DNA from: a virus
Lineage: Duplodnaviria > Heunggongvirae > Uroviricota > Caudoviricetes
DNA: 43,689 nucleotides
Virus record (IMG/VR): IMGVR_UViG_3300045988_038444
Coordinates: 1-43,689 of that record
Strand: one strand, 5' to 3'
In this document: positions 1 through 30,137 of the stretch, piece by piece
Position numbering within the stretch: the stretch's first letter is position 1
How the letters are laid out: every line of letters starts with the position of its first letter
Program-made: the position numbers and the translations under genes
The notes under the pieces: generated by a model
Databases searched by the model: none
Seen by the model: only the letters and a program-made list of their open reading frames with translations
Told to the model about the DNA's origin: nothing

Positions 1-105
1 CCTGTAGCAGCGCCTACACCAGCGGCAGCACCTGTAGCAGCGCCTACACCAGCGGCAGCACCTGTAGCAGCGCCTACACCAGCGGCAGCACCTGTAGCAG
101 CGCCT
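1..105 (+). repeat. Coding tandem repeat, 30-bp unit cctgtagcagcgcctacaccagcggcagca x3 plus a partial fourth copy
   Basis: Three exact 30-bp copies at 1-90 and a diverged partial copy after; in frame 1 they encode PVAAPTPAAA repeats. Confidence 0.9.
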
Positions 106-249
106 GTGAAGGTGATGACTGAAAAAGCAGGTGGTGTAACTTACGAACAGTTTATTGCGCAAGGTTGGAACGATGAACAACTGATCGCTAACGGTTATAT
201 GGTAATGACCACCCCGGCCCCGAATTTTCTCAACGGTAACGGTTACTGA
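1..249 (+). CDS. 3' part of a Pro/Ala-rich repeat protein (5' end lies outside or across the window edge)
   Basis: Frame 1 is open from nt 1 to TGA at 247-249; encodes (PVAAPTPAAA)x3 then KVMTEKAGGVTYEQFIAQGWNDEQLIANGYMVMTTPAPNFLNGNGY. Not in ORF track because no start in window. Confidence 0.5.
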   Translation, partial: PVAAPTPAAAPVAAPTPAAAPVAAPTPAAAPVAAPVKVMTEKAGGVTYEQFIAQGWNDEQLIANGYMVMTTPAPNFLNGNGY

Positions 250-289
250 TAGTTACTGGAACTGGGACGACATACCGCTTTAAACAGAC

Positions 290-312
290 ATGGGGCCATA
301 GTGCCCCATTTA
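290..312 (+). promoter_or_regulatory. Conserved 17-nt element ccatagtgccccattta (copy 1), with 7-bp hairpin atggggc/gccccat
   Basis: Sits 16 nt upstream of ATG 328; same 17-mer recurs at 595-611 upstream of the next gene. Confidence 0.3.
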
Positions 313-327
313 TCAACGAGGTATAAA

Positions 328-582
328 ATGAATCAAGAACAATTTGTACAAGAACAAGAAATGTTTGAAAAATTATCTTTAGAAGACCAATTGTCATACG
401 TAAAGAAACACGGAGTGATTCAAAAAAGATTTAATAGCGTTTTAAGAACTTCCCGTGAAAATTTTGGTAAATTTTATTTCGCGTATGAAGTGCAAAACGG
501 TTATGGGTGGCGATTTGCACGCGCTTCTACAAAAGAAGAAAGTGATCGGTTATATAATGAATGGGTCAATAAGCGTTCATAA
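328..582 (+). CDS. Hypothetical protein
   Basis: Track ORF 301..582; start moved to internal ATG 328 (MNQEQFVQ...) preceded by gagg and matching the arrangement of the next gene. Confidence 0.5.
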   Translation: MNQEQFVQEQEMFEKLSLEDQLSYVKKHGVIQKRFNSVLRTSRENFGKFYFAYEVQNGYGWRFARASTKEESDRLYNEWVNKRS

Positions 583-628: not shown

Positions 629-2485
629 ATGTCAGATGCTTACGTTCACGATATTGAAAACTATCCTAATGTTTTTCTGTTCGGTGCTATTCACGCGTTA
701 ACTGAAACACCTTATATTTTTGAGATTTCACATCGTCGCGATGATCGTCAGGCTTTTTACCTGTTCACAGAATATTTGCGTGAACATCGTGCTGAAGAAG
801 TTGGTTATAACAATCTGGGTTACGACTATCCTGTTCAGCATTCTATTTTGAACAACATCATGTATATCACCAACGCAGACATTTACAAAAAAGGTGATTC
901 GATAATTAACGCTGGTGATGAAAATCGTTTTGCTCATATGGTGTGGGAAAAAGACTGGATAGTTCCCCAACTTGATTTGTATAAAATTCATCATTTCGAC
1001 AATCAGGCAAAACGAACAAGTCTGAAAACACTTGAATTCAATATGAGAATGGAAAACATTGAAGACCTTCCGTTTACCCCAGGGACTTATTTAACCGATT
1101 CTCAAATTGATACGCTTCGTCAATATCTGATACACGATTTGAAAGCGACTTTGATGTTTTATAAACACAGTAAAAAGCTGATAGATTTTCGTCGTGAACT
1201 TTCTGCTAAATACGGTCGTAATTTCATGAACCATAATGACACGAAAATCGGTAAAGACTATTTCATTATGGAACTTGAAAAATCAGGTATTCAATGTTTC
1301 GAACCGTGTAGCAGAAAACCACGACAGACGCACAGACCATCAATCGCATTGAACAGTGTGATTTTCCCTTATGTCCGTTTTGAACAGCCTGAATTTAATC
1401 GTGTTCTTAACTGGTTACGTCAGCAGGTCATCACTGAAACAAAAGGTGTATTTACAGATTTAAGCGCAGACATTAACGGGTTCTCGTTTGATTTTGGTAC
1501 GGGTGGTATCCACGGGTCTATTGAATCTCAAACTATCAGGTCCACTGAAAATTATGTGATCATCGATCTGGACGTTGCCAGTTTTTACCCGAACCTTGCG
1601 ATCAGTAATGAACTTTATCCGGCACATCTGGGAAAACAATTTTGCACCATTTATAAAAATGTTTACGACATGCGTTCCAGTTACCCGAAAGGTACACCAG
1701 AAAATGCAATGTTAAAACTGGCGTTAAACGGTGTGTATGGTGACAGTAATAACGTATACAGTCCATTCTACGATCCTGCTTATACAATGGCTATTACGAT
1801 TAATGGACAGTTACTTTTGTGCATGTTGGCTGAAGAACTTCTGAAAATCCCTGGTTTGTCCATGATCCAGGCTAACACAGATGGTCTTACGGTTTACGTA
1901 CCACGAGTGTTTACCGGACAAGTAGAACAGGTTCGTCACGCGTGGGAAAAATTAACCAGACTCCAGCTTGAAGAAGCGATTTATGACGTGATGTTTATTC
2001 GCGATGTAAATAATTACATCGCTGTTTATGAAGGCGGTAAGAAAGTTAAACGTAAAGGCGCTTATTGTCACAGTGTTGATCTGGGTTGGCATCAAAACCA
2101 CAGTATGCAGGTTGTTGCAAAAGCGGCTGAAGCAGCACTGGTACACAATAAAGACATTCATGATTTTATAACATCACACGAAGACATTCACGATTTCATG
2201 TTAGTGACGAAAGTACCGCGTAACAGCAAGTTATTATGGGGTGATAAACAGGTTCAGAACATTACCCGTTATTACGTCAGTACAGATGGTGCACCTTTGA
2301 CAAAAGTCATGCCACCGCTGGCAAAATCACTGAAACTGAACCCTGATGCGCCTGAACGCCGCATGTCCGTGTGCAAAGGTTGGTTGACCACTGAGTGCAA
2401 CGACATGAAACGTTTTAACCGGGCAACGCTAAATTATGATTTTTACATCAAAGAAGCTGAAAAACTCGTTGCACCACTTCGGTAA
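629..2485 (+). CDS. Family B DNA polymerase, compact phi29-like (protein-primed type) with 3'-5' exonuclease motifs
   Basis: 618 aa. Motifs read directly: HDIENYP (Exo I DxE), YLIHDLKA (Exo III-like), DLDVASFYPNL (motif A, Dx2SLYPS-like), KLALNGVYGDS (motif B, Kx3NSxYG-like), ANTDGLTV (motif C-like). Confidence 0.7.
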   Translation: MSDAYVHDIENYPNVFLFGAIHALTETPYIFEISHRRDDRQAFYLFTEYLREHRAEEVGYNNLGYDYPVQHSILNNIMYITNADIYKKGDSIINAGDENRFAHMVWEKDWIVPQLDLYKIHHFDNQAKRTSLKTLEFNMRMENIEDLPFTPGTYLTDSQIDTLRQYLIHDLKATLMFYKHSKKLIDFRRELSAKYGRNFMNHNDTKIGKDYFIMELEKSGIQCFEPCSRKPRQTHRPSIALNSVIFPYVRFEQPEFNRVLNWLRQQVITETKGVFTDLSADINGFSFDFGTGGIHGSIESQTIRSTENYVIIDLDVASFYPNLAISNELYPAHLGKQFCTIYKNVYDMRSSYPKGTPENAMLKLALNGVYGDSNNVYSPFYDPAYTMAITINGQLLLCMLAEELLKIPGLSMIQANTDGLTVYVPRVFTGQVEQVRHAWEKLTRLQLEEAIYDVMFIRDVNNYIAVYEGGKKVKRKGAYCHSVDLGWHQNHSMQVVAKAAEAALVHNKDIHDFITSHEDIHDFMLVTKVPRNSKLLWGDKQVQNITRYYVSTDGAPLTKVMPPLAKSLKLNPDAPERRMSVCKGWLTTECNDMKRFNRATLNYDFYIKEAEKLVAPLR

Positions 2486-2524
2486 ACCGTATAGAATTAT
2501 TTAAAACTTATTGAGGCGATAACA

Positions 2525-3061
2525 ATGCATACTTCACACAAATTTGTAACTGGTTCACCGATTGGTGTCTTTACTCCCGGTAAAATTTACAACCGTGTTG
2601 ACGGGTTCACCCGTGACGGTCGTTCCCGTGGTTTTTATATTGATGACCGTGGTGAATTCCGTTTAACAGATGATGATATGTTCGAACCTGCAGAACAGAT
2701 CCAACTGCGTTTACCACAGATGCCAATGTTTCCGGCCCGTCAGGAACGTCTTAAACTGGCTGCACGCTGGGGAACGTCTGAAATCAGTATCAGTAACTGG
2801 TACAAAGTTGATGACCTGATGAAACCGTGGCGCATCGGTGACGCTATCTGTGGTACTCGTGTTCTTACAGAACCTAATACAACGACGTTTAAACCCGGTG
2901 AACTGGCTGAACTGGCTAATTCCCGTGGTTATCTGCTGTCAGAATTATCCGTTCGTTGGGGGTGGCATTATGGATGTGAAACTTTACACACTATCAGCAT
3001 GGATCCGCGTCGTGTTGCGCTTATCTGGGATATGTTAGAAGGAATGAATCGTCATGACTGA
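2525..3061 (+). CDS. Hypothetical protein
   Basis: 178-aa ORF, ATG start, packed in plus-strand operon. Confidence 0.5.
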   Translation: MHTSHKFVTGSPIGVFTPGKIYNRVDGFTRDGRSRGFYIDDRGEFRLTDDDMFEPAEQIQLRLPQMPMFPARQERLKLAARWGTSEISISNWYKVDDLMKPWRIGDAICGTRVLTEPNTTTFKPGELAELANSRGYLLSELSVRWGWHYGCETLHTISMDPRRVALIWDMLEGMNRHD

Positions 3062-3401
3062 TTACAGTAAGATGGATGATAGAGATATTGATCGCCTTGT
3101 TTTGAAAGTTATTTACGGTGTTCATGCTGACGATAAAGATATCCAAGGTTGTTGGTCACGGGGCGGTTTCAAATATACCACTAATCCGACTGACGCAATG
3201 CCGATTATTATTGAAAATAAAATTAGTATTGTTTCAACAGATTCATCGTGGATCGCTTTACCTGACAATGCTGCTATTGATGGAATTACTGGTGATGCGA
3301 CAGAAATGATTTATGCGGATGACTCATGTGTTATTCACGCTAACCCACTCCGTGCCGCAATGATTGTGTTCTTACAGATGCAGGAAAACAACCATGATTA
3401 A
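3054..3401 (+). CDS. Hypothetical protein
   Basis: 115-aa ORF overlapping neighbours by a few nt (coupled arrangement). Confidence 0.45.
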   Translation: MTDYSKMDDRDIDRLVLKVIYGVHADDKDIQGCWSRGGFKYTTNPTDAMPIIIENKISIVSTDSSWIALPDNAAIDGITGDATEMIYADDSCVIHANPLRAAMIVFLQMQENNHD

Positions 3402-3744
3402 ACTCTGTTACATTGCCGGGCCTTATCGTGCTGATTGTGCGCTTAAAACATCCCGTAACGTGTCGCGCGCTGAACAGGCAGGTAAACGACTTGCTTTACA
3501 ACGTCCGGGGTGGTTCCCGGTTATCCCTCACAAGAACACCGAATTGTGGGACTTTGACGGCGGTTTACGCAATATACAACCCGAATACTACTTGTCAGGC
3601 ACATTAGAAGTTATGCGCCGTTGTGATGCCGTTCTGGTACTTCCTGATTATCGTCGTTCGTCCGGGACTATTGCGGAAATTGCAGAAGCTGAACGTCTGG
3701 GTATTCCTGTGTATTACAGTGTGGAGAGTATCCCACATGGTTGA
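3394..3744 (+). CDS. Nucleoside 2-deoxyribosyltransferase-like protein (DUF1937/DUF4406-type fold)
   Basis: Start taken at internal ATG 3394 (MIKLCYIAGPYRA...). N-terminal IAGPY motif and C-terminal SSGTIAEIAEAERLGIPV resemble the NDT family catalytic Glu motif. Confidence 0.45.
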   Translation: MIKLCYIAGPYRADCALKTSRNVSRAEQAGKRLALQRPGWFPVIPHKNTELWDFDGGLRNIQPEYYLSGTLEVMRRCDAVLVLPDYRRSSGTIAEIAEAERLGIPVYYSVESIPHG

Positions 3745-4516
3745 TGTTAAGTTATTTAATCAAGATTGTTTGTTCATGATGAACTTCATTACTGAAAAAT
3801 CTATTGATTTAATTCTTACAGATCCTCCGTATGGTACAACTGCTTGCAAATGGGATTCGATAATAGATTTAGATTTAATGTGGTCAAATTTAAATCGAAT
3901 CATTACGGATAAAGGGGCAATCGTTCTTACGGCAACACAACCATTTGCAAGTATTTTAGTAAATTCAAACATCAAAATGTTTAAATACGATTGGGTGTGG
4001 AATAAATCAAAACGAACTGATTTTGTAAGAGCAAAACTAAAACCAATGGGTGGTCACGAAAGCGTTTTGGTTTTCAGTAAAGGTTCTGTTGCGAATGGTG
4101 CATCTTCAATGATGAACTATTACCCACAAGGTTTGAAACGTATTAATAAAGTAGCTAAAAACGGCGGCGGTGGTTCTGGTTTTTTGGGTCGTAATGGTGA
4201 AAATTTAGGACCAAATAACAAGCTACACAAACCTACGTATATTCAAGAATTTACAGGATACCCATGCACTCAATTGAATATTCAGAGTGAGAATAAAACA
4301 GTTCATCCCACGCAAAAACCTGTAGAGTTAATGGAATATCTTATTTTAACTTACACAAAAGAAGGTGATACGGTTTTAGATTTCACAATGGGTAGTGGAA
4401 CAACAGGTGTTGCTGCCGTGAAAACTAATCGTAATTTTATCGGTATAGAGTTAGATAAAGAATATTTCGAAATTGCTAATAAACGTATTAATTTGGCATT
4501 GATGGGTATTTACTAA
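3737..4516 (+). CDS. DNA methyltransferase, beta-class N6-adenine/N4-cytosine type (DPPY ... FxGxG order)
   Basis: Start at ATG 3737 overlapping the upstream stop; motif IV DPPYG near N-terminus, motif I LDFTMGSGTTGVAA near C-terminus. Confidence 0.85.
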   Translation: MVDVKLFNQDCLFMMNFITEKSIDLILTDPPYGTTACKWDSIIDLDLMWSNLNRIITDKGAIVLTATQPFASILVNSNIKMFKYDWVWNKSKRTDFVRAKLKPMGGHESVLVFSKGSVANGASSMMNYYPQGLKRINKVAKNGGGGSGFLGRNGENLGPNNKLHKPTYIQEFTGYPCTQLNIQSENKTVHPTQKPVELMEYLILTYTKEGDTVLDFTMGSGTTGVAAVKTNRNFIGIELDKEYFEIANKRINLALMGIY

Positions 4517-16398: not shown

Positions 16399-17310
16399 AT
16401 GAGTAGGAAACGTTTAACCACAGAAGAGTTTATCACGCGTGCCCGTGAAGTTCATGGGCACAAATACGATTACTCACTAGTGGAGTATTTGAATTGGCGC
16501 ACACCTGTGAAAATCATCTGTCCTATACATGGAGTGTTTGAACAAATTCCTAATAATCATTTAAAAGGACGCAAGTGTTTATTCTGTGCAGGAAATCAAC
16601 AATCAAATACCAATGAATTTATCACAAGGGGGCGCGAAGTTCATGGGGGTAAGTATGGTTATTCGTTGGTGAAATATAAAGACTCTCGGACCAAAGTGAA
16701 AATCATTTGTCCAATACACGGAATGTTTGAACAACGTCCATATAGTCACTTGCAGCAAAAAGCAGGTTGCCCACAATGTGCTTGGGAACAATTGTCTGAA
16801 CAAAGACGTTTATCCGCCGAAGAATTCATTACTCGTGCTCGCGAAGTTCACGGGGACCGTTACGACTATTCGTTGGTGGAGTATGTTAACAATTCCACCC
16901 CTGTAAAAATTATTTGTTCAGAACACGGTGTGTTTGAACAGACACCGGGCAATCACACATTTATGAAAGCTGGCTGTCCCCAGTGCGCTGAAACAGGTTT
17001 TAATCCGTCAGAACCCGGCACGTTATATGTACTCGCTGATGATAAACAGTATCCCACTCTGATTAAAATTGGTATTACAAACGACTTAAAACAGCGACTA
17101 CGACAACTACAACGACGAACTCCGCATCTTGTGGTTAAACTTGTATCGTATCCGTTCCCACATGGCGCTGACGCTTACAAACTGGAACAAGAGGTACACA
17201 AGGTCTTTCACGAACTTAATGCGCGTCTCAAAGGCTTTGACGGTGCTACAGAGTGGTTTAAATACTCTCCTGCAATCCTCGATTACATAAATGAAAAAGC
17301 CCGGAACTAA
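16399..17310 (+). CDS. T5orf172-domain (GIY-YIG-like) protein with three N-terminal zinc-ribbon-like repeats; homing-endonuclease-like
   Basis: Three ~60-aa repeats EEFITRAREVHGxKYDYSLVEY...PVKIICPIHGVFEQ...GCPQC; C-terminal YVL...KIGIT...TEWF matches the T5orf172 pattern. Confidence 0.65.
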   Translation: MSRKRLTTEEFITRAREVHGHKYDYSLVEYLNWRTPVKIICPIHGVFEQIPNNHLKGRKCLFCAGNQQSNTNEFITRGREVHGGKYGYSLVKYKDSRTKVKIICPIHGMFEQRPYSHLQQKAGCPQCAWEQLSEQRRLSAEEFITRAREVHGDRYDYSLVEYVNNSTPVKIICSEHGVFEQTPGNHTFMKAGCPQCAETGFNPSEPGTLYVLADDKQYPTLIKIGITNDLKQRLRQLQRRTPHLVVKLVSYPFPHGADAYKLEQEVHKVFHELNARLKGFDGATEWFKYSPAILDYINEKARN

Positions 17311-20759: not shown

Positions 20760-21181
20760 TGATTAAACCTCACCATTATTCCGGCTTTTAATATAGCACG
20801 TTCGACAAACCCGGAAGGTGTCTGTGTACTGCTACCACCATTGAGAACCCCAATGTAAGGAACGTTGTTAGTAATATGCAGTTCCTGACCATTAACTTTA
20901 ATACTGCTGATAGTGACTGTATCCTGTTCGATACGTGCTTTACTGGCTTCAACATTACCTGTTGGTGTATCAGGACTATTAGCGGGTTGCCCCTGATCGA
21001 ACCACCAGTTGTTGCTTGCCCAGCCACTCAATATTGGTGTACCATCAGGAGGCTCACTTATGAGTATGTTACGTAGTGTTAAAACATATCTAATGACTTG
21101 ACGATCCGTAAAATCTTGTAAGTCGGCTTTTATGTCTTTAAACACTCCAGTAATACGATTTATATCATTGATTTTGCTAGT
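20756..21181 (-). CDS. Head-tail joining protein (putative)
   Basis: Track ORF 20756..21250; start moved to internal Met 21181 (MTSKINDINR...) because the 5' extension collides with the divergent plus gene. Confidence 0.35.
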   Translation of the reverse strand, partial: TSKINDINRITGVFKDIKADLQDFTDRQVIRYVLTLRNILISEPPDGTPILSGWASNNWWFDQGQPANSPDTPTGNVEASKARIEQDTVTISSIKVNGQELHITNNVPYIGVLNGGSSTQTPSGFVERAILKAGIMVRFNQ

Positions 21182-21206
21182 CATTGACAAACCTAAAGGT
21201 AGAAAA

Positions 21207-22103
21207 ATGGGCGGTAAAAGACTAACCAAAGAACAACTAGAGCATAACATAAAAGATATTTGTCAATCAAAAAATTACAAATTTATAAAATGGAAAGACG
21301 GGTTTAAAAACAAAGAATCACGAATTATTTTATCTTGTGTTACACACGGGGAATGGGACACTAAATGTTATCATTTTTTGAATGGTTCTGGTTGTCCGAT
21401 CTGTGGTGGAACACGAACCACAAAAGGGTTAAGAATTGCACAGATTAAAGACAGTTTAACAAATTCTAAATCAAAGTTTATTAAATTTAAAACTAATTTT
21501 CAAAATGGAAATTCTGTTTGTTTGCTGAGCTGTATTGATCATGGTGGATGGGAGACAACAGTCAATAGACTAATCTTTACATCTGTTGATTGCCCGTTGT
21601 GTATAACGAATAGACAGAAAACTAAACAAGAACGAGAAATTGAAATAACAAATAGATGTAAAGAAACAGGGTTGTTTTTTAATAAGATATTCGACGAACA
21701 TCCGACATGGAAATCTAAAATATCATTAAAGTGTTCAACGCATGGTGATTTTGTTACAACAATTAATTCTTTTCTTAGTAAACAAAAAGGTTGTCCAAAC
21801 TGTAGTAAAACAGGGTTTAAAGCTGGTAAGTATGCAACACTTTATGTCTTGCGGTCCACATGCGGTCGTTACGTTAAAATAGGTATCAGTAATTGTGTAG
21901 AGCAAAGAATTAATACACTTCGTAGAAAAACACCATTTGATTTTCAAGTAATAGAAAAATTGAATGGACACGGGGCAACCATTCGTTCACTTGAAAAAGA
22001 TTTTCATTCTCATTTTGAATCTGCAGGATTAACCGGGTTCGATGGTTGTACAGAGTGGTTAAAATGGAATCCAAATATAACCACTCTGATACGGATGTTA
22101 TAG
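21207..22103 (+). CDS. T5orf172-domain (GIY-YIG-like) protein with zinc-ribbon-like repeats, second copy
   Basis: Start taken at ATG 21207 (MGGKRLTKEQ...). Repeats with HG...GCPxC modules and C-terminal TLYVL...VKIGIS...TEWLKW. Confidence 0.65.
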   Translation: MGGKRLTKEQLEHNIKDICQSKNYKFIKWKDGFKNKESRIILSCVTHGEWDTKCYHFLNGSGCPICGGTRTTKGLRIAQIKDSLTNSKSKFIKFKTNFQNGNSVCLLSCIDHGGWETTVNRLIFTSVDCPLCITNRQKTKQEREIEITNRCKETGLFFNKIFDEHPTWKSKISLKCSTHGDFVTTINSFLSKQKGCPNCSKTGFKAGKYATLYVLRSTCGRYVKIGISNCVEQRINTLRRKTPFDFQVIEKLNGHGATIRSLEKDFHSHFESAGLTGFDGCTEWLKWNPNITTLIRML

Positions 22104-22481
22104 TTATACCGCTCCAACAGGATGAATAAATGCCATATCATCCCCTAACAATCGTGGGTTTTGACGATCAAGAAGGCGATATTCTTTACCACGTTCATCA
22201 ACCACAACATCACCCCGATCAGGAACAAATCGTGGTTCAAAACTCTGACTATCCATAATTACCATCGTTGTGGTTATTCTGGTCATAGTAGTCGGATCCC
22301 ACTTTTCTAATGGGTAAATATAACCACGACACGTATGCGATTCAGTAACGGTTGTACCCGGTAATGTAGGATTAGACGGGTTGGGAACTGTTATCACACG
22401 TTTTACCGTCAAATCCTCACCTACTTCAGCAAGTGCACGAGTAACACCTTTCAGGACACTTTGACGTTTGTCTGCCATCAC
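22104..22481 (-). CDS. Head-tail connector / head completion protein (putative)
   Basis: 125-aa ORF, position. Confidence 0.35.
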   Translation of the reverse strand: MMADKRQSVLKGVTRALAEVGEDLTVKRVITVPNPSNPTLPGTTVTESHTCRGYIYPLEKWDPTTMTRITTTMVIMDSQSFEPRFVPDRGDVVVDERGKEYRLLDRQNPRLLGDDMAFIHPVGAV

Positions 22482-27385: not shown

Positions 27386-27411
27386 ACATTCAACCCTTCT
27401 TGTTCTCTTAA

Positions 27412-27456
27412 CCACAGGGTAGTTGTGTCGGTGTAATCCGTCAAGAATTATTTTGC
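27412..27456 (-). promoter_or_regulatory. Inverted copy of the conserved early promoter, reading leftward
   Basis: Plus gtaatccgtcaagaattatttt is the reverse complement of aaaataattcttgacggattac; downstream leader nearly matches the plus copy at 27742. Confidence 0.6.
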
Positions 27457-27526
27457 GTATAGATTCATGGGAAGTATGCGACCCCCTATACCTTTTAAAC
27501 CTCTCCTACTTGCAGCAACTTTTACT

Positions 27527-27640
27527 ACTTATACTACTCTTCTATTTATCTATGTTTATTATGTTTTCTATAAAAAGATAACAAAAAGAATAAGATAGAG
27601 AGGGGTTGGTTAAAAAGTAAACATGACGAAATATATGAAT
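27527..27640. repeat. Conserved ~110-bp noncoding element, copy A (core 27567-27632)
   Basis: Core tctataaaaagataacaaaaagaataagatagagaggggttggttaaaaagtaaacatgacgaaat recurs at 42643-42708 with 4 mismatches in 66 nt. Confidence 0.8.
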
Positions 27641-27652
27641 CTATGATCTACT

Positions 27653-27733
27653 AATACACGTTCTGTATTAGCCGCAACTCAAAATCATGAAACCTATGTA
27701 GAACTATGTGCAGTTAGTACACGTTCTGTATTA
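27653..27733. promoter_or_regulatory. Two operator-like inverted repeats aataca-cgttc-tgtatt, 63 bp apart
   Basis: aatacacgttctgtatt at 27653-27669 and gtacacgttctgtatta at 27716-27733, just upstream of the promoter at 27742. Confidence 0.4.
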
Positions 27734-27741
27734 ACTGCATC

Positions 27742-27786
27742 TTTAAAATAATTCTTGACGGATTACACCGACGCAACTATCTTGTG
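27742..27786 (+). promoter_or_regulatory. Conserved early promoter copy (-35 TTGACG 27755-27760, -10 tatctt 27778-27783)
   Basis: ctttaaaataattcttgacggattacaccgacgcaactatctt. Confidence 0.7.
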
Positions 27787-27814
27787 GTTAACAGGAAGAA
27801 AAAGGAGACATGCA

Positions 27815-28601: not shown

Positions 28602-28876
28602 TGTGTTACTGTATGAAAAAAGTTGGTGACGAACTTCAAAAACGTCTGATGGAAAAAGTACCAGTAGGTTCGGAAGTCAGCACTAACCTGTTTGATAAAG
28701 TTGGCTGGGATAATCAGTGTTTCGGTCTGACGTCTGGTAAAACTTACGTTATGTTGAAATATCGTCTTGCATACCGTGCTAAAAAGAAAAACGGTGAACT
28801 GGCGAAGAACTTCACGCGCCTGGAAACCAACATCAAAATGTCTTATTGTCCATTCTGCGGGGAGAAACAGGAGTAA
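28601..28876 (+). CDS. Hypothetical protein with C-terminal CPFCG zinc-ribbon-like motif
   Basis: 91-aa ORF; Cys pairs at both ends. Confidence 0.45.
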   Translation: MCYCMKKVGDELQKRLMEKVPVGSEVSTNLFDKVGWDNQCFGLTSGKTYVMLKYRLAYRAKKKNGELAKNFTRLETNIKMSYCPFCGEKQE

Positions 28877-29114
28877 TCGCTATGGGAATGAAACAAATAT
28901 GGGATGGTAAAACCTTCCTTCTGTTGGTTGTGAAGTATTGATCCATCTGGCAAGCATTAACAAGTGGGTGGCACGAACTGTTCAGGGTTATGAAATATGG
29001 CCTTCTGTTTATGAAAATGATACGGCACATCACAGGGTAAACATAAAATTTGAAGATAATGTTCGTCTGTTATGTGATGTGCGACCTCTTGACTGGCGTG
29101 AACCTGATTAACTT

Positions 29115-29176
29115 GGTTCGATGGCTGTACTGAGTGGTTAAAATGGAATCCAAATATAACCACTCTAATACGTATA
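29115..29176 (+). pseudogene. Remnant of the 3' end of a T5orf172-type gene
   Basis: ggttcgatggctgtactgagtggttaaaatggaatccaaatataaccactctaatacg is near-identical to 22038-22095 (end of gene 21207..22103); encodes FDGCTEWLKWNPNITTLIR but has an in-frame TGA at 29105-29107 just upstream. Confidence 0.6.
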
Positions 29177-29177
29177 A

Positions 29178-30137
29178 TCACGGGATAACATTTATATCTT
29201 GAGGGAGAGAATAAGCAACCCGGCAACGACAATTAATCACGTTCGCAGCACTACCGTTAGGATCACGAGGAAACATAAGTGGTCCTAACGGCGTTGAAAA
29301 CGGTCTGTCCATTGGTATCCAGCCGTTCGTTTCACCTGTAGAAATATGCGCATCACGTGTCCGACCATCTTTTCTATATAACCAGCGCTTCAGCAATTCA
29401 TTACTAATAGCCCCGGTAATCTGTCCCTGACGTATTGCCTGATCCTGACCAACTGATACAGCACGAAGTGATTCAGTACGCGCTATTGTCTCTGTACGCT
29501 GTTTTACATAACGCAAGCGTGTCTGTTCGATTATCTGGTCAATCTTCACCTGTGATAGTTTCCCGGCACTTACAGCGTTCTTCGCACTGTCTGTAACAGT
29601 GGTCAGACTGTTCACATAACCTGCTTCACCTTTTTCCAGTGCTGATCGTAGACGTTGAACCGTCATTTCCTGCCGTGTGGTTAACCCTATTGATGATCGA
29701 AAATCACGGGCTATCTGACGCGGATTTCGTCCGGTTACCATACCCTGGTTAACTGCAATCTGAACAGCTTTGACTGTTTCGTCACTGACTTCACGGATCA
29801 GTTGTCCGACATAGTTGTTGATATATGTGCTGACCTGTGGGGTGACCAGACTGAACACAACCGGACCTGTTACAGCCGCTTTCGGTAGAACCTGAACGAC
29901 TACACGACCTGATTCAGCGATCGCATCTTCAATAACCGGGCGCAACTGTGCACTAAGTTCATCAGGAAGTGTTTCAAGAATGGGGAGTAACCCGGCAATA
30001 CCTTGGGTTTCAATAATGTATTCCAGGTTGGCTAACGACTCACTACGACGCACGTTTTCCCACACAACATCAAGTGCTTCGCGAATGCGAGCGTCATACT
30101 TGTCTGAAATATCCGGGTATGGGTCTTTAGTAGCCAT
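29178..30137 (-). CDS. Head morphogenesis protein (Mu F / SPP1 gp7-like minor head protein)
   Basis: 319 aa; C-terminal DGRTRDAH ... NCRC pattern typical of the Phage_Mu_F family. Confidence 0.65.
   Translation of the reverse strand: MATKDPYPDISDKYDARIREALDVVWENVRRSESLANLEYIIETQGIAGLLPILETLPDELSAQLRPVIEDAIAESGRVVVQVLPKAAVTGPVVFSLVTPQVSTYINNYVGQLIREVSDETVKAVQIAVNQGMVTGRNPRQIARDFRSSIGLTTRQEMTVQRLRSALEKGEAGYVNSLTTVTDSAKNAVSAGKLSQVKIDQIIEQTRLRYVKQRTETIARTESLRAVSVGQDQAIRQGQITGAISNELLKRWLYRKDGRTRDAHISTGETNGWIPMDRPFSTPLGPLMFPRDPNGSAANVINCRCRVAYSLPQDINVIP

Follow-up and report, generated by a model that had tools for sequence, protein, structure and literature searches.

We analysed the virus record IMGVR_UViG_3300045988_038444 of IMG/VR (Caudoviricetes; 43,689 nt, positions 1 to 43,689, hereafter the window) and we considered, in particular, the short segment that lies next to its head-morphogenesis gene. 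This segment is very probably the non-functional scar of a deleted free-standing homing endonuclease gene (HEG). The intact gene, which is a third gene of the T5orf172 type and which we call HEG3, occupies the same locus in relatives of the window. The relic is homologous to HEG3, an exact deletion of 918 bp separates it from the intact allele, the site exists in three allelic states, and a recoded tail of the head-morphogenesis gene is co-inherited with the cassette. By sequence, the window belongs to the 9NA/Sasha-like siphophages of E. coli: its closest relatives in GenBank are PJ16, PDP46, KarinMuster_Bas82, AVIO78A, Sashavirus 536P12 and BDX09P1 (~95-96% identity), followed, at 80-86%, by the Salmonella phages 9NA, Sasha and SP069 and the Klebsiella phages Carvaje, KP13-27 and BU9.

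The scar and the genes around it are made up of the following features:

29108..29188, plus strand: relic of HEG3, i.e. its last 26 codons and stop (LTWFDGCTEWLKWNPNITTLIRIITG and stop), collinear with 3726..3806 of the PDP46 locus (L001).
29106..29172, plus strand: 67-nt repeat common to the relic and to the 3′ end of a paralogue (22027..22093), 62/67 identities, E 1.7e-22.
29106..29112, no strand: deletion junction GATTAAC, which includes the stop TAA of the upstream gene (29109..29111), placed by the blast segments against the PDP46 locus.
29114 and 29125, plus strand: two substitutions private to the relic of the window, G>T (Gly>Trp in the old frame) and T>C, with respect to the other relics and all intact copies.
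28882..29111, plus strand: upstream gene of 76 amino acids, function not assigned, whose stop is the left side of the junction.
29178..30137, minus strand: head-morphogenesis gene (Mu F-like / SPP1 gp7-like; Pfam Phage_Mu_F, E 2.6e-10), with an invaded 3′ end.
29178..29217, minus strand: recoded last 13 codons and stop of that gene (VAYSLPQDINVIP and stop), from the codon table given below, which travel with the HEG3 cassette.
21207..22103, plus strand: intact paralogue (gene 2), with CapR/DUF723 zinc-finger repeats and T5orf172 (MUG113) by Pfam, between neck and tail-terminator genes.

The first-pass annotation of the window had described the segment as a decayed remnant that was near-identical to the 3′ end of the gene 21207..22103, with 4 mismatches in about 60 nt. 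The near-identity stands: in a pairwise blastn, 29106..29172 aligned with 22027..22093 over 67 nt, ungapped, with 62/67 identities (E 9e-26), and the match is neither shorter nor weaker than it had been read by eye. The mismatch count does not, as the same alignment has 3 mismatches inside 29115..29172. When 28700..29400 was compared with the whole window, 22027..22093 was the sole significant second match, and its E value of 1.7e-22 rules out a chance or low-complexity match. The frame of the relic runs TGA (29105-07) TTA ACT TGG TTC..., i.e. a stop, then LTWFDGCTEWLKWNPNITTLIRIITG, then a stop at 29186..29188, and it bears out both the peptide LTWFDGCTEWLKWNPNITTLIRIITG that had been quoted and the in-frame TGA just upstream, at 29105..29107.

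The edges of the relic differ from those of the repeat. The similarity to gene 2 ends at 29172 and the relic proper extends to 29188, with its true left edge in the junction heptamer GATTAAC (29106..29112). At the right it overlaps the stop codon of the head-morphogenesis gene (29178..29180, minus strand) by 11 nt, and these final 11 nt are now within the reading frame of that gene, on the opposite strand. The 26-amino-acid relic peptide gave no Pfam match, so no T5orf172/MUG113 domain is detectable in the relic itself, and the N-terminal DNA-binding zinc-finger module (CapR/DUF723/DUF4379) is gone from it, the copy of the window having been deleted. In annotation, 29108..29188 is better marked as a gene remnant than as an open reading frame (ORF).

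A check of relatives for an intact gene at this locus was positive. In PDP46, 2883..3806 of the locus is a 924-nt gene for a "hypothetical protein" of 307 amino acids (XNX38402.1), placed between the homologue of 28882..29111 and the head-morphogenesis gene, which it overlaps tail-to-tail by 11 nt (C-terminus ...SAELTGFDGCTEWLKWNPNITTLIRIITG / ...LTGFDGCTEWLKWNPNITTLIRIITG, each followed by the stop). Its Pfam matches are three CapR repeats, MUG113 (4e-11) and T5orf172 (2.7e-5). The same-site gene of the Klebsiella phage KP13-27, with 79% amino acid identity, has the same architecture (CapR three times, MUG113 3e-11, T5orf172 2.6e-6), and PHROG 681 'endonuclease' matches the intact HEG3 with E 1e-65. 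A sequence search of HEG3 against solved structures gave nothing meaningful (best E 0.24). The gene is also present, together with gene 2, in the IMG/VR record UViG_3300045988_029198, a 96-98% relative of the window, and at the same site in the metagenome contigs CYGL01002343 and CYGL01004237, the latter being cut within the 3′ end of HEG3. The relic is 97.7% identical to PDP46 over 128 nt, flank included. In all cases HEG3 converges on the gene corresponding to 29178..30137, annotated in relatives as head morphogenesis, prohead assembly or minor capsid protein 2, and the adjacency to a head-morphogenesis gene that had been read from the window is borne out.

The same site is without any HEG in PJ16, Bas82, AVIO78A, 536P12, BDX09P1, 9NA, Sasha, Carvaje and BU9, where the two genes overlap or abut and the head-morphogenesis gene has its native tail; in PJ16, Bas82, AVIO78A and 536P12 the site is cleanly empty and the two convergent genes overlap by TTAA. 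A divergent 1.6-kb segment of BDX09P1 was considered as a candidate HEG and rejected, since it contains unrelated small ORFs next to the native HEG-less tail. There are, hence, three states at one site: empty (9 phages), intact (PDP46, KP13-27, UViG_3300045988_029198 and the CYGL contigs) and relic (4 genomes). They support the earlier proposal that the segment is a footprint of gain and loss of a mobile family at a third site.

The window is collinear with the PDP46 locus on both sides of the scar. Precisely, 28882..29112 corresponds to 2576..2807 of that locus and everything from 29108 onward corresponds to 3726 onward. The two blast segments abut, sharing a 5-nt overlap (TTAAC), and the window is without exactly 2808..3725, i.e. 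918 bp relative to PDP46. The identical junction, CCTGATTAAC joined to TGGGTTCGATGG, was found in IMG/VR UViG_3300014770_000007 and in the contigs OQVO01000029 and OQVL01024742. Because the same junction is present in three other assemblies, an assembly artefact is ruled out: the deletion allele is real and it is circulating. The end points have similar heptamers, GATTAAC and (A/G)(G/A)TT(G/A)AC, which suggests, from the sequence of the alleles, slippage or microhomology-mediated joining. The right breakpoint is AGTTGAC in PDP46 and GATTAAC in gene 2 and in the CYGL alleles, which read GGATTAAC; a right breakpoint of the CYGL type would make a 7-nt direct repeat with the left GATTAAC, and the usable microhomology is between 2 and 7 nt, depending on the ancestral allele. 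From 29114 to 29125 the window reads TTGGTTCGATGGCTGT; the three other scar carriers and all intact copies read TGGGTTCGATGGTTGT. By this comparison, the two private substitutions are the sole post-deletion decay of the relic. The description of the segment as a decayed remnant is therefore right as to the remnant and wrong as to a gradual erosion, as one 918-bp deletion and two later substitutions account for it.

The cassette also includes the end of its neighbour. We tabulated the last 25 codons of the head-morphogenesis gene in 11 genomes (7 HEG-less and 4 HEG3-bearing or relic), and the last 13 codons fall into two types:

Seven HEG-less phages (of E. coli, Salmonella and Klebsiella): GTA CAG TAC AGT TTG/A CCG/A GAA GAT ATx GGT TCx yTG GGT/AGT stop; protein VQYSLPEDIGSLG (BU9 ends in S).
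Four HEG3-bearing or relic genomes: GTy GCy TAT TCT CTy CCw sAA GAT ATA AAy GTT ATC CCG stop; protein VAYSLP(Q/E)DINVIP.

BDX09P1 has the native protein tail too, which brings to eight, from three host genera, the HEG-less genomes with VQYSLPEDIGSLG. In the recoded tail the protein is nearly unchanged and the DNA is rewritten: 10/19 nt of the core block differ, and the changes include Ser AGT>TCT and Leu TTG>CTC, which are unreachable by single synonymous steps. The window has 23 mismatches with respect to PJ16 in 29178..29237 and then 0-2 per 30 nt, and 0 mismatches with respect to PDP46 across 29178..29237. KP13-27 is equal to its HEG-less Klebsiella kin (Carvaje) in the 11 upstream codons, and its switch falls at the valine codon where the E. 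coli phages also change; therefore the recoded tail belongs to the mobile cassette and not to the host lineage. The association is perfect, as the recoded tail is confined to HEG3-bearing and scar genomes. In the HEG3-bearing genomes the native tail AAGATATTGGTTCGTTGGGTTAA (minus strand) persists as a non-coding duplicate at the left of the HEG, and the deletion of the window removed it. The recoding probably removes the target of the endonuclease, giving a cleavage-resistant version of the gene end, and the predicted target is GTACAGTACAGTTTGCCGGAAGATAT, which is the native sequence where the head-morphogenesis gene ends.

The relic has to be distinguished from its paralogues in the window, which, besides gene 2, include a more distant one:

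16399..17310, plus strand: intact distant paralogue (gene 1), with DUF723 three times and T5orf172 (MUG113) by Pfam, adjoining tape-measure and tail-chaperone genes.

Gene 1 has 27-29% amino acid identity to the other paralogues, and gene 2 has 45-47% to HEG3. When gene 2 and HEG3 were codon-aligned, nucleotide identity stayed at ~30-60% through the first ~750 nt and rose to ~90% in the final ~110 nt. The HEG3 alleles of the CYGL contigs (2960..3016 in CYGL01002343 and 1..75 in CYGL01004237, against 22020..22093 of the window) have gene-2-type bases in the last ~100 nt (GGATTAACCGGG...ACAGAG), and by this pattern they are direct evidence that gene 2 and HEG3 exchange 3′ ends. The common ~110-nt 3′ module probably derives from gene conversion between co-resident paralogues, and it is because of this module that the relic could be spotted by eye. 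We rejected the relic as a copy of gene 2, since it runs 16 nt further (GTATAATCACGGGATAA), has a flank found with HEG3 only and is nearer to the HEG3 of PDP46; on these comparisons its true orthologue is HEG3 and not the gene 21207..22103.

Genes 1 and 2 are themselves present or absent among close relatives, and the T5orf172 family is therefore a mobile one in these phages. None of the 10 close GenBank relatives has gene 2, which is present in UViG_3300045988_029198. Gene 1 is present in BDX09P1, 536P12 and Bas82, partial in PJ16 (90% of the query, in two pieces) and absent from PDP46, Sasha, Solent, Sergei, AVIO78A and 9NA.

At the flanks of gene 2 we observed that 21010..21187, the 5′ end of the neck gene, has 6-15 mismatches per 30 nt with respect to Bas82 (0-1 farther off), with an almost unchanged protein, and that at the other flank, 22104..22133, the last codon and the stop codon of the neighbouring gene are changed. 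This mostly synonymous diverged flank of ~180 nt is the same rewritten-flank signature as that at the scar.

Put together, these data can be read as follows. The HEG3 cassette of PDP46 and KP13-27 consists of a promoter-like site with a hairpin and a ribosome-binding region, the 924-nt gene and a substitute for the 13 codons that end the head-morphogenesis gene. Its product combines three CapR-type zinc-finger modules with a C-terminal nuclease domain of T5orf172 type (GIY-YIG superfamily). In the lineage of the window HEG3 probably once lay with the small plus-strand gene cluster on one side and the convergent head-morphogenesis gene on the other. By analogy with the intronless homing of T4 seg and mob, the endonuclease would cut the native tail in co-infecting HEG-less phages, and the repair of the double-strand break from the HEG3-bearing genome would copy in the gene and the recoded, uncuttable tail; the rewritten tail would also shield the carriers from self-cleavage. 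A single 918-bp deletion then removed the old duplicated tail of the head-morphogenesis gene, the regulatory region and 281 of the 307 codons, and the scar gathered its two substitutions afterwards. The window allele, with the selfish gene lost and the altered target kept, is at the degeneration/loss stage of the homing cycle. By the same analogy, the scar allele is probably immune to re-invasion by HEG3.

As to the region before the intact gene, PDP46 (2826..2885) and KP13-27 (~1943..2003) have a 12-bp hairpin, AACCTCCTGTTG...CAACAGGAGGTT, then TTTTATTTT, then the TTG start of HEG3. The Shine-Dalgarno sequence is in the 3′ arm, and a promoter-like site TTGACC-N17-TAATAT has its -10 in the loop (z -3.96 for the hairpin). 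The arrangement looks like a terminator and ribosome-binding-site mask with an internal promoter, reminiscent of the control of T4 endonuclease and late genes. In the window this whole region is deleted.

Some points weigh against the reading of the segment as the scar of a deleted HEG. The nuclease activity of HEG3, the location of its target and the resistance of the recoded tail are what we infer; in particular, immunity is argued from analogy and from an association over only ~8 HEG3-bearing or scar genomes vs ~8 HEG-less ones. The mechanism of the deletion is not pinned down, because perfect microhomology is just 2 nt with respect to PDP46, and 7 nt solely with respect to the CYGL alleles, which then have a C vs T difference at the next base. 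In addition, the window differs from the other scar carriers in 27/483 nt of the right flank, and therefore the scar moved by recombination or arose more than once. Finally, the deletion of an established HEG and an aborted homing event are not separable by sequence alone.

In an aborted homing event, a HEG-less ancestor would have been cut by HEG3, and repair would have copied the recoded tail and ~80 nt of the 3′ end of the HEG before dissociating; the TTAAC/TTGAC microhomology would then have served to join the broken end and the resected left one, and the lineage would never have held a complete HEG3. The product expected is identical, i.e. a donor tail with a partial HEG 3′ end on the left flank and with the native tail lost, and phage homing is known to involve both co-conversion and exonucleolytic resection (PMC2988022). 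The right flank of the window beyond ~29240, nearer to the HEG-less PJ16, Bas82 and BDX09P1 (14-15/483 nt) than to PDP46 (35), would fit a short conversion tract, but ordinary recombination, rampant in these phages, accounts just as well for such a mosaic. Moreover, an illegitimate join is needed on top of homing, whereas a simple deletion is one step, and the finding of this very junction in a second background speaks for a single event that then spread. We consider aborted homing unlikely, while leaving it a real share of probability.

A second alternative is that the fragment was retained for a function and that its end point was selected. It rests on a further feature of the relic:

29132..29165 (arms 29132..29140 and 29157..29165), no strand: perfect 9-bp inverted repeat, GAGTGGTTA-N16-TAACCACTC, also found in gene 2 and in all HEG3 copies.

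This hairpin, as an element of RNA 3′-end formation, stability or termination, would sit exactly between the convergent genes. Its fold is more stable than that of shuffled sequence, whichever strand is taken (z -3.4 for plus and -3.3 for minus), its stem is unchanged in all relics and intact copies, and the same end point occurs on two flank backgrounds. However, the terminator scan did not call it (there is no T-run, 4/9 pairs are G-C, the loop is of 16 nt and TAATACGTAT follows), and the HEG-less relatives manage with overlapping genes and without the element. The stem is invariant in all available copies and gives no covariation support, and an equivalent was not found in the distant T5orf172 genes of JustaPhage, RCIP0063 and Vibrio 1.007.O or in gene 1. 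The repeat lies within coding sequence, and its conservation is explained by the common 3′ module. We therefore regard the hairpin as unsupported as an intrinsic terminator or conserved RNA element, and retention for such a function as quite improbable.

As for a chance similarity, an assembly collapse or an ectopic patch from gene 2 at a site that never had a third gene, which could appeal to the 3′ end of gene 21207..22103 being the only other copy in the window and to the swapping of 3′ sequence between paralogues in the CYGL alleles, its probability is close to nil given the E value of 1.7e-22, the same junction in three independent assemblies and the course of the relic, which runs 16 nt past the gene 2 similarity (GTATAATCACGGGATAA) into the recoded tail, as does intact HEG3.

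Returning to the deletion of an established HEG3, the scar may further be a HEG-free resistance allele that spreads by recombination in 9NA/Sasha phages, as it would guard them from cleavage and marker exclusion by co-infecting carriers of HEG3 without the cost of the gene. We advance this tentatively, as a possibility that we would not favour. The identical junction on two clearly different flank backgrounds would fit it, as would the coexistence of naive, invaded and scarred alleles.

The cyclical model of HEGs, reportedly proposed by Goddard and Burt in 1999, runs through invasion, fixation, degeneration, loss and re-invasion. It is restated in PMC13619312 and PMC5009752. As in that cycle, a naive empty site, an intact HEG and a HEG-deleted relic coexist here at one site in one phage group. 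Unlike in the cycle, the loss occurred by one deletion and not by accumulated point mutations, and it leaves an altered target, so that a re-invadable site would need recombination with a native allele.

Proteins with T5orf172 and CapR/DUF723 are widespread putative phage HEGs, clustered near essential genes and subject to domain swapping (Barth, Dunham & Seed 2023, PMC10448857); the groups that carry them include ICP1, T5-like, Plateaulake-like and VpaJT-like phages. Section 20 of the paper names enriched lineages, and the 9NA/Sasha group does not figure there. HEG3 resembles these genes in its CapR-type repeats followed by a C-terminal T5orf172, in adjoining an essential structural gene with presence/absence polymorphism, and in the exchange of modules between paralogues (here the ~110-nt 3′ end, with the CYGL alleles). 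The window differs from them in keeping the last 26 codons only, with no detectable domain. In-frame deletions and domain swaps are reported in that study, and a search of its main text turned up nothing on remnants, pseudogenes or recoding.

Intronless homing, co-conversion and marker exclusion are established for the free-standing seg (GIY-YIG) and mob (HNH) genes of T4 (Edgell, Gibb & Belfort 2010, PMC2988022). HEG3 is similar to these in being a free-standing endonuclease gene between, or at the end of, conserved genes, and in that HEG3-bearing genomes differ in the neighbouring conserved gene, with co-inherited flanks. It differs in belonging to the T5orf172 subfamily, with zinc-finger repeats and not the I-TevI/Seg-type DNA binding, in a cassette that replaces the last 13 codons of the target gene with a tail-to-tail overlap, and in being known here from sequence alone. 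The T5orf172 domain belongs to the GIY-YIG superfamily, and characterised relatives exist for both domains of HEG3: ICP1 Odn (Gp88) has a T5orf172 nuclease activity that depends on a conserved glutamate and is abolished by E180A (PMC8263062), and the zinc-finger module of PLE CapR binds specific DNA (PMC8096241). These two proteins are, unlike HEG3, domesticated for anti-satellite or regulatory roles, of which neither the relic nor HEG3 shows any sign.

More distant T5orf172 genes in two unrelated phages, the Klebsiella phage RCIP0063 and the Vibrio phage 1.007.O, are on the strand opposite to the structural genes. Like HEG3, each of them meets a convergent structural gene tail-to-tail, with 12-23 nt shared between the two 3′ ends (1054..1065 and 1046..1068, respectively), and this may be a habit of the family. 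We also noted that CYGL01002343 (at 1..533 and 3524..3700) has fold-back ends and a 91-nt fragment of a gene-2-like HEG 3′ end beside ~200 nt that had no match among the sequences fetched. This may be either an assembly chimera or a second kind of relic, and the contig was used solely for its intact copy of HEG3.

In the head-morphogenesis gene itself, 29218..29700 is strongly mosaic: the window is like the HEG-less PJ16, Bas82 and BDX09P1, and the other three scar carriers are like 536P12 and PDP46. A 90-nt patch (29358..29447) has 19 mismatches between the window and PDP46. At the left of the scar, the upstream gene 28882..29111 has at 28909..28912 a run of A4 in the window vs A5 in 10 related sequences, and its translation in the window ends after 19 codons. 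With A5 the 76-amino-acid ORF is intact in 9/10 of these sequences, CYGL01002343 having a separate later frameshift. There are several nearby substitutions, and the gene could be either a real pseudogene or the product of a homopolymer sequencing error; in annotation it is to be flagged as frameshifted. The small plus-strand gene cluster before the head-morphogenesis gene is a variable cassette region, which in BDX09P1 (1569..3169) holds 1.6 kb of unrelated small ORFs. Short inverted repeats in the intergenic region 27400..27800 are common to the relatives.

That HEGs degenerate and are lost, that their flanks are co-converted and that the genomes bearing them have altered target sites is well established, and the family was already considered one of putative HEGs. 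Specific to this case are a documented relic of the T5orf172 type, a cassette that takes the place of the last 13 codons in an essential head gene, and the occurrence in one phage group of naive, invaded and scarred alleles together with 3′ exchange between paralogues.

The scar itself is of little functional weight, being non-coding debris plus 11 nt that serve the head-morphogenesis gene. Its value is that of a marker: 9NA/Sasha-like coliphages are seen to be actively gaining and losing endonuclease genes of the T5orf172/CapR type, and the cassette to bring with it a rewritten end for the essential gene that it invades. The scar also provides natural material for testing T5orf172 homing, so far mostly inferred, and isolates exist for two of the states, PDP46 with HEG3 and Bas82 or PJ16 with the empty site. 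If the scar is in fact a spreading resistance allele, these phages would be a tractable natural system for the homing-cycle dynamics of the little-studied T5orf172 endonucleases.

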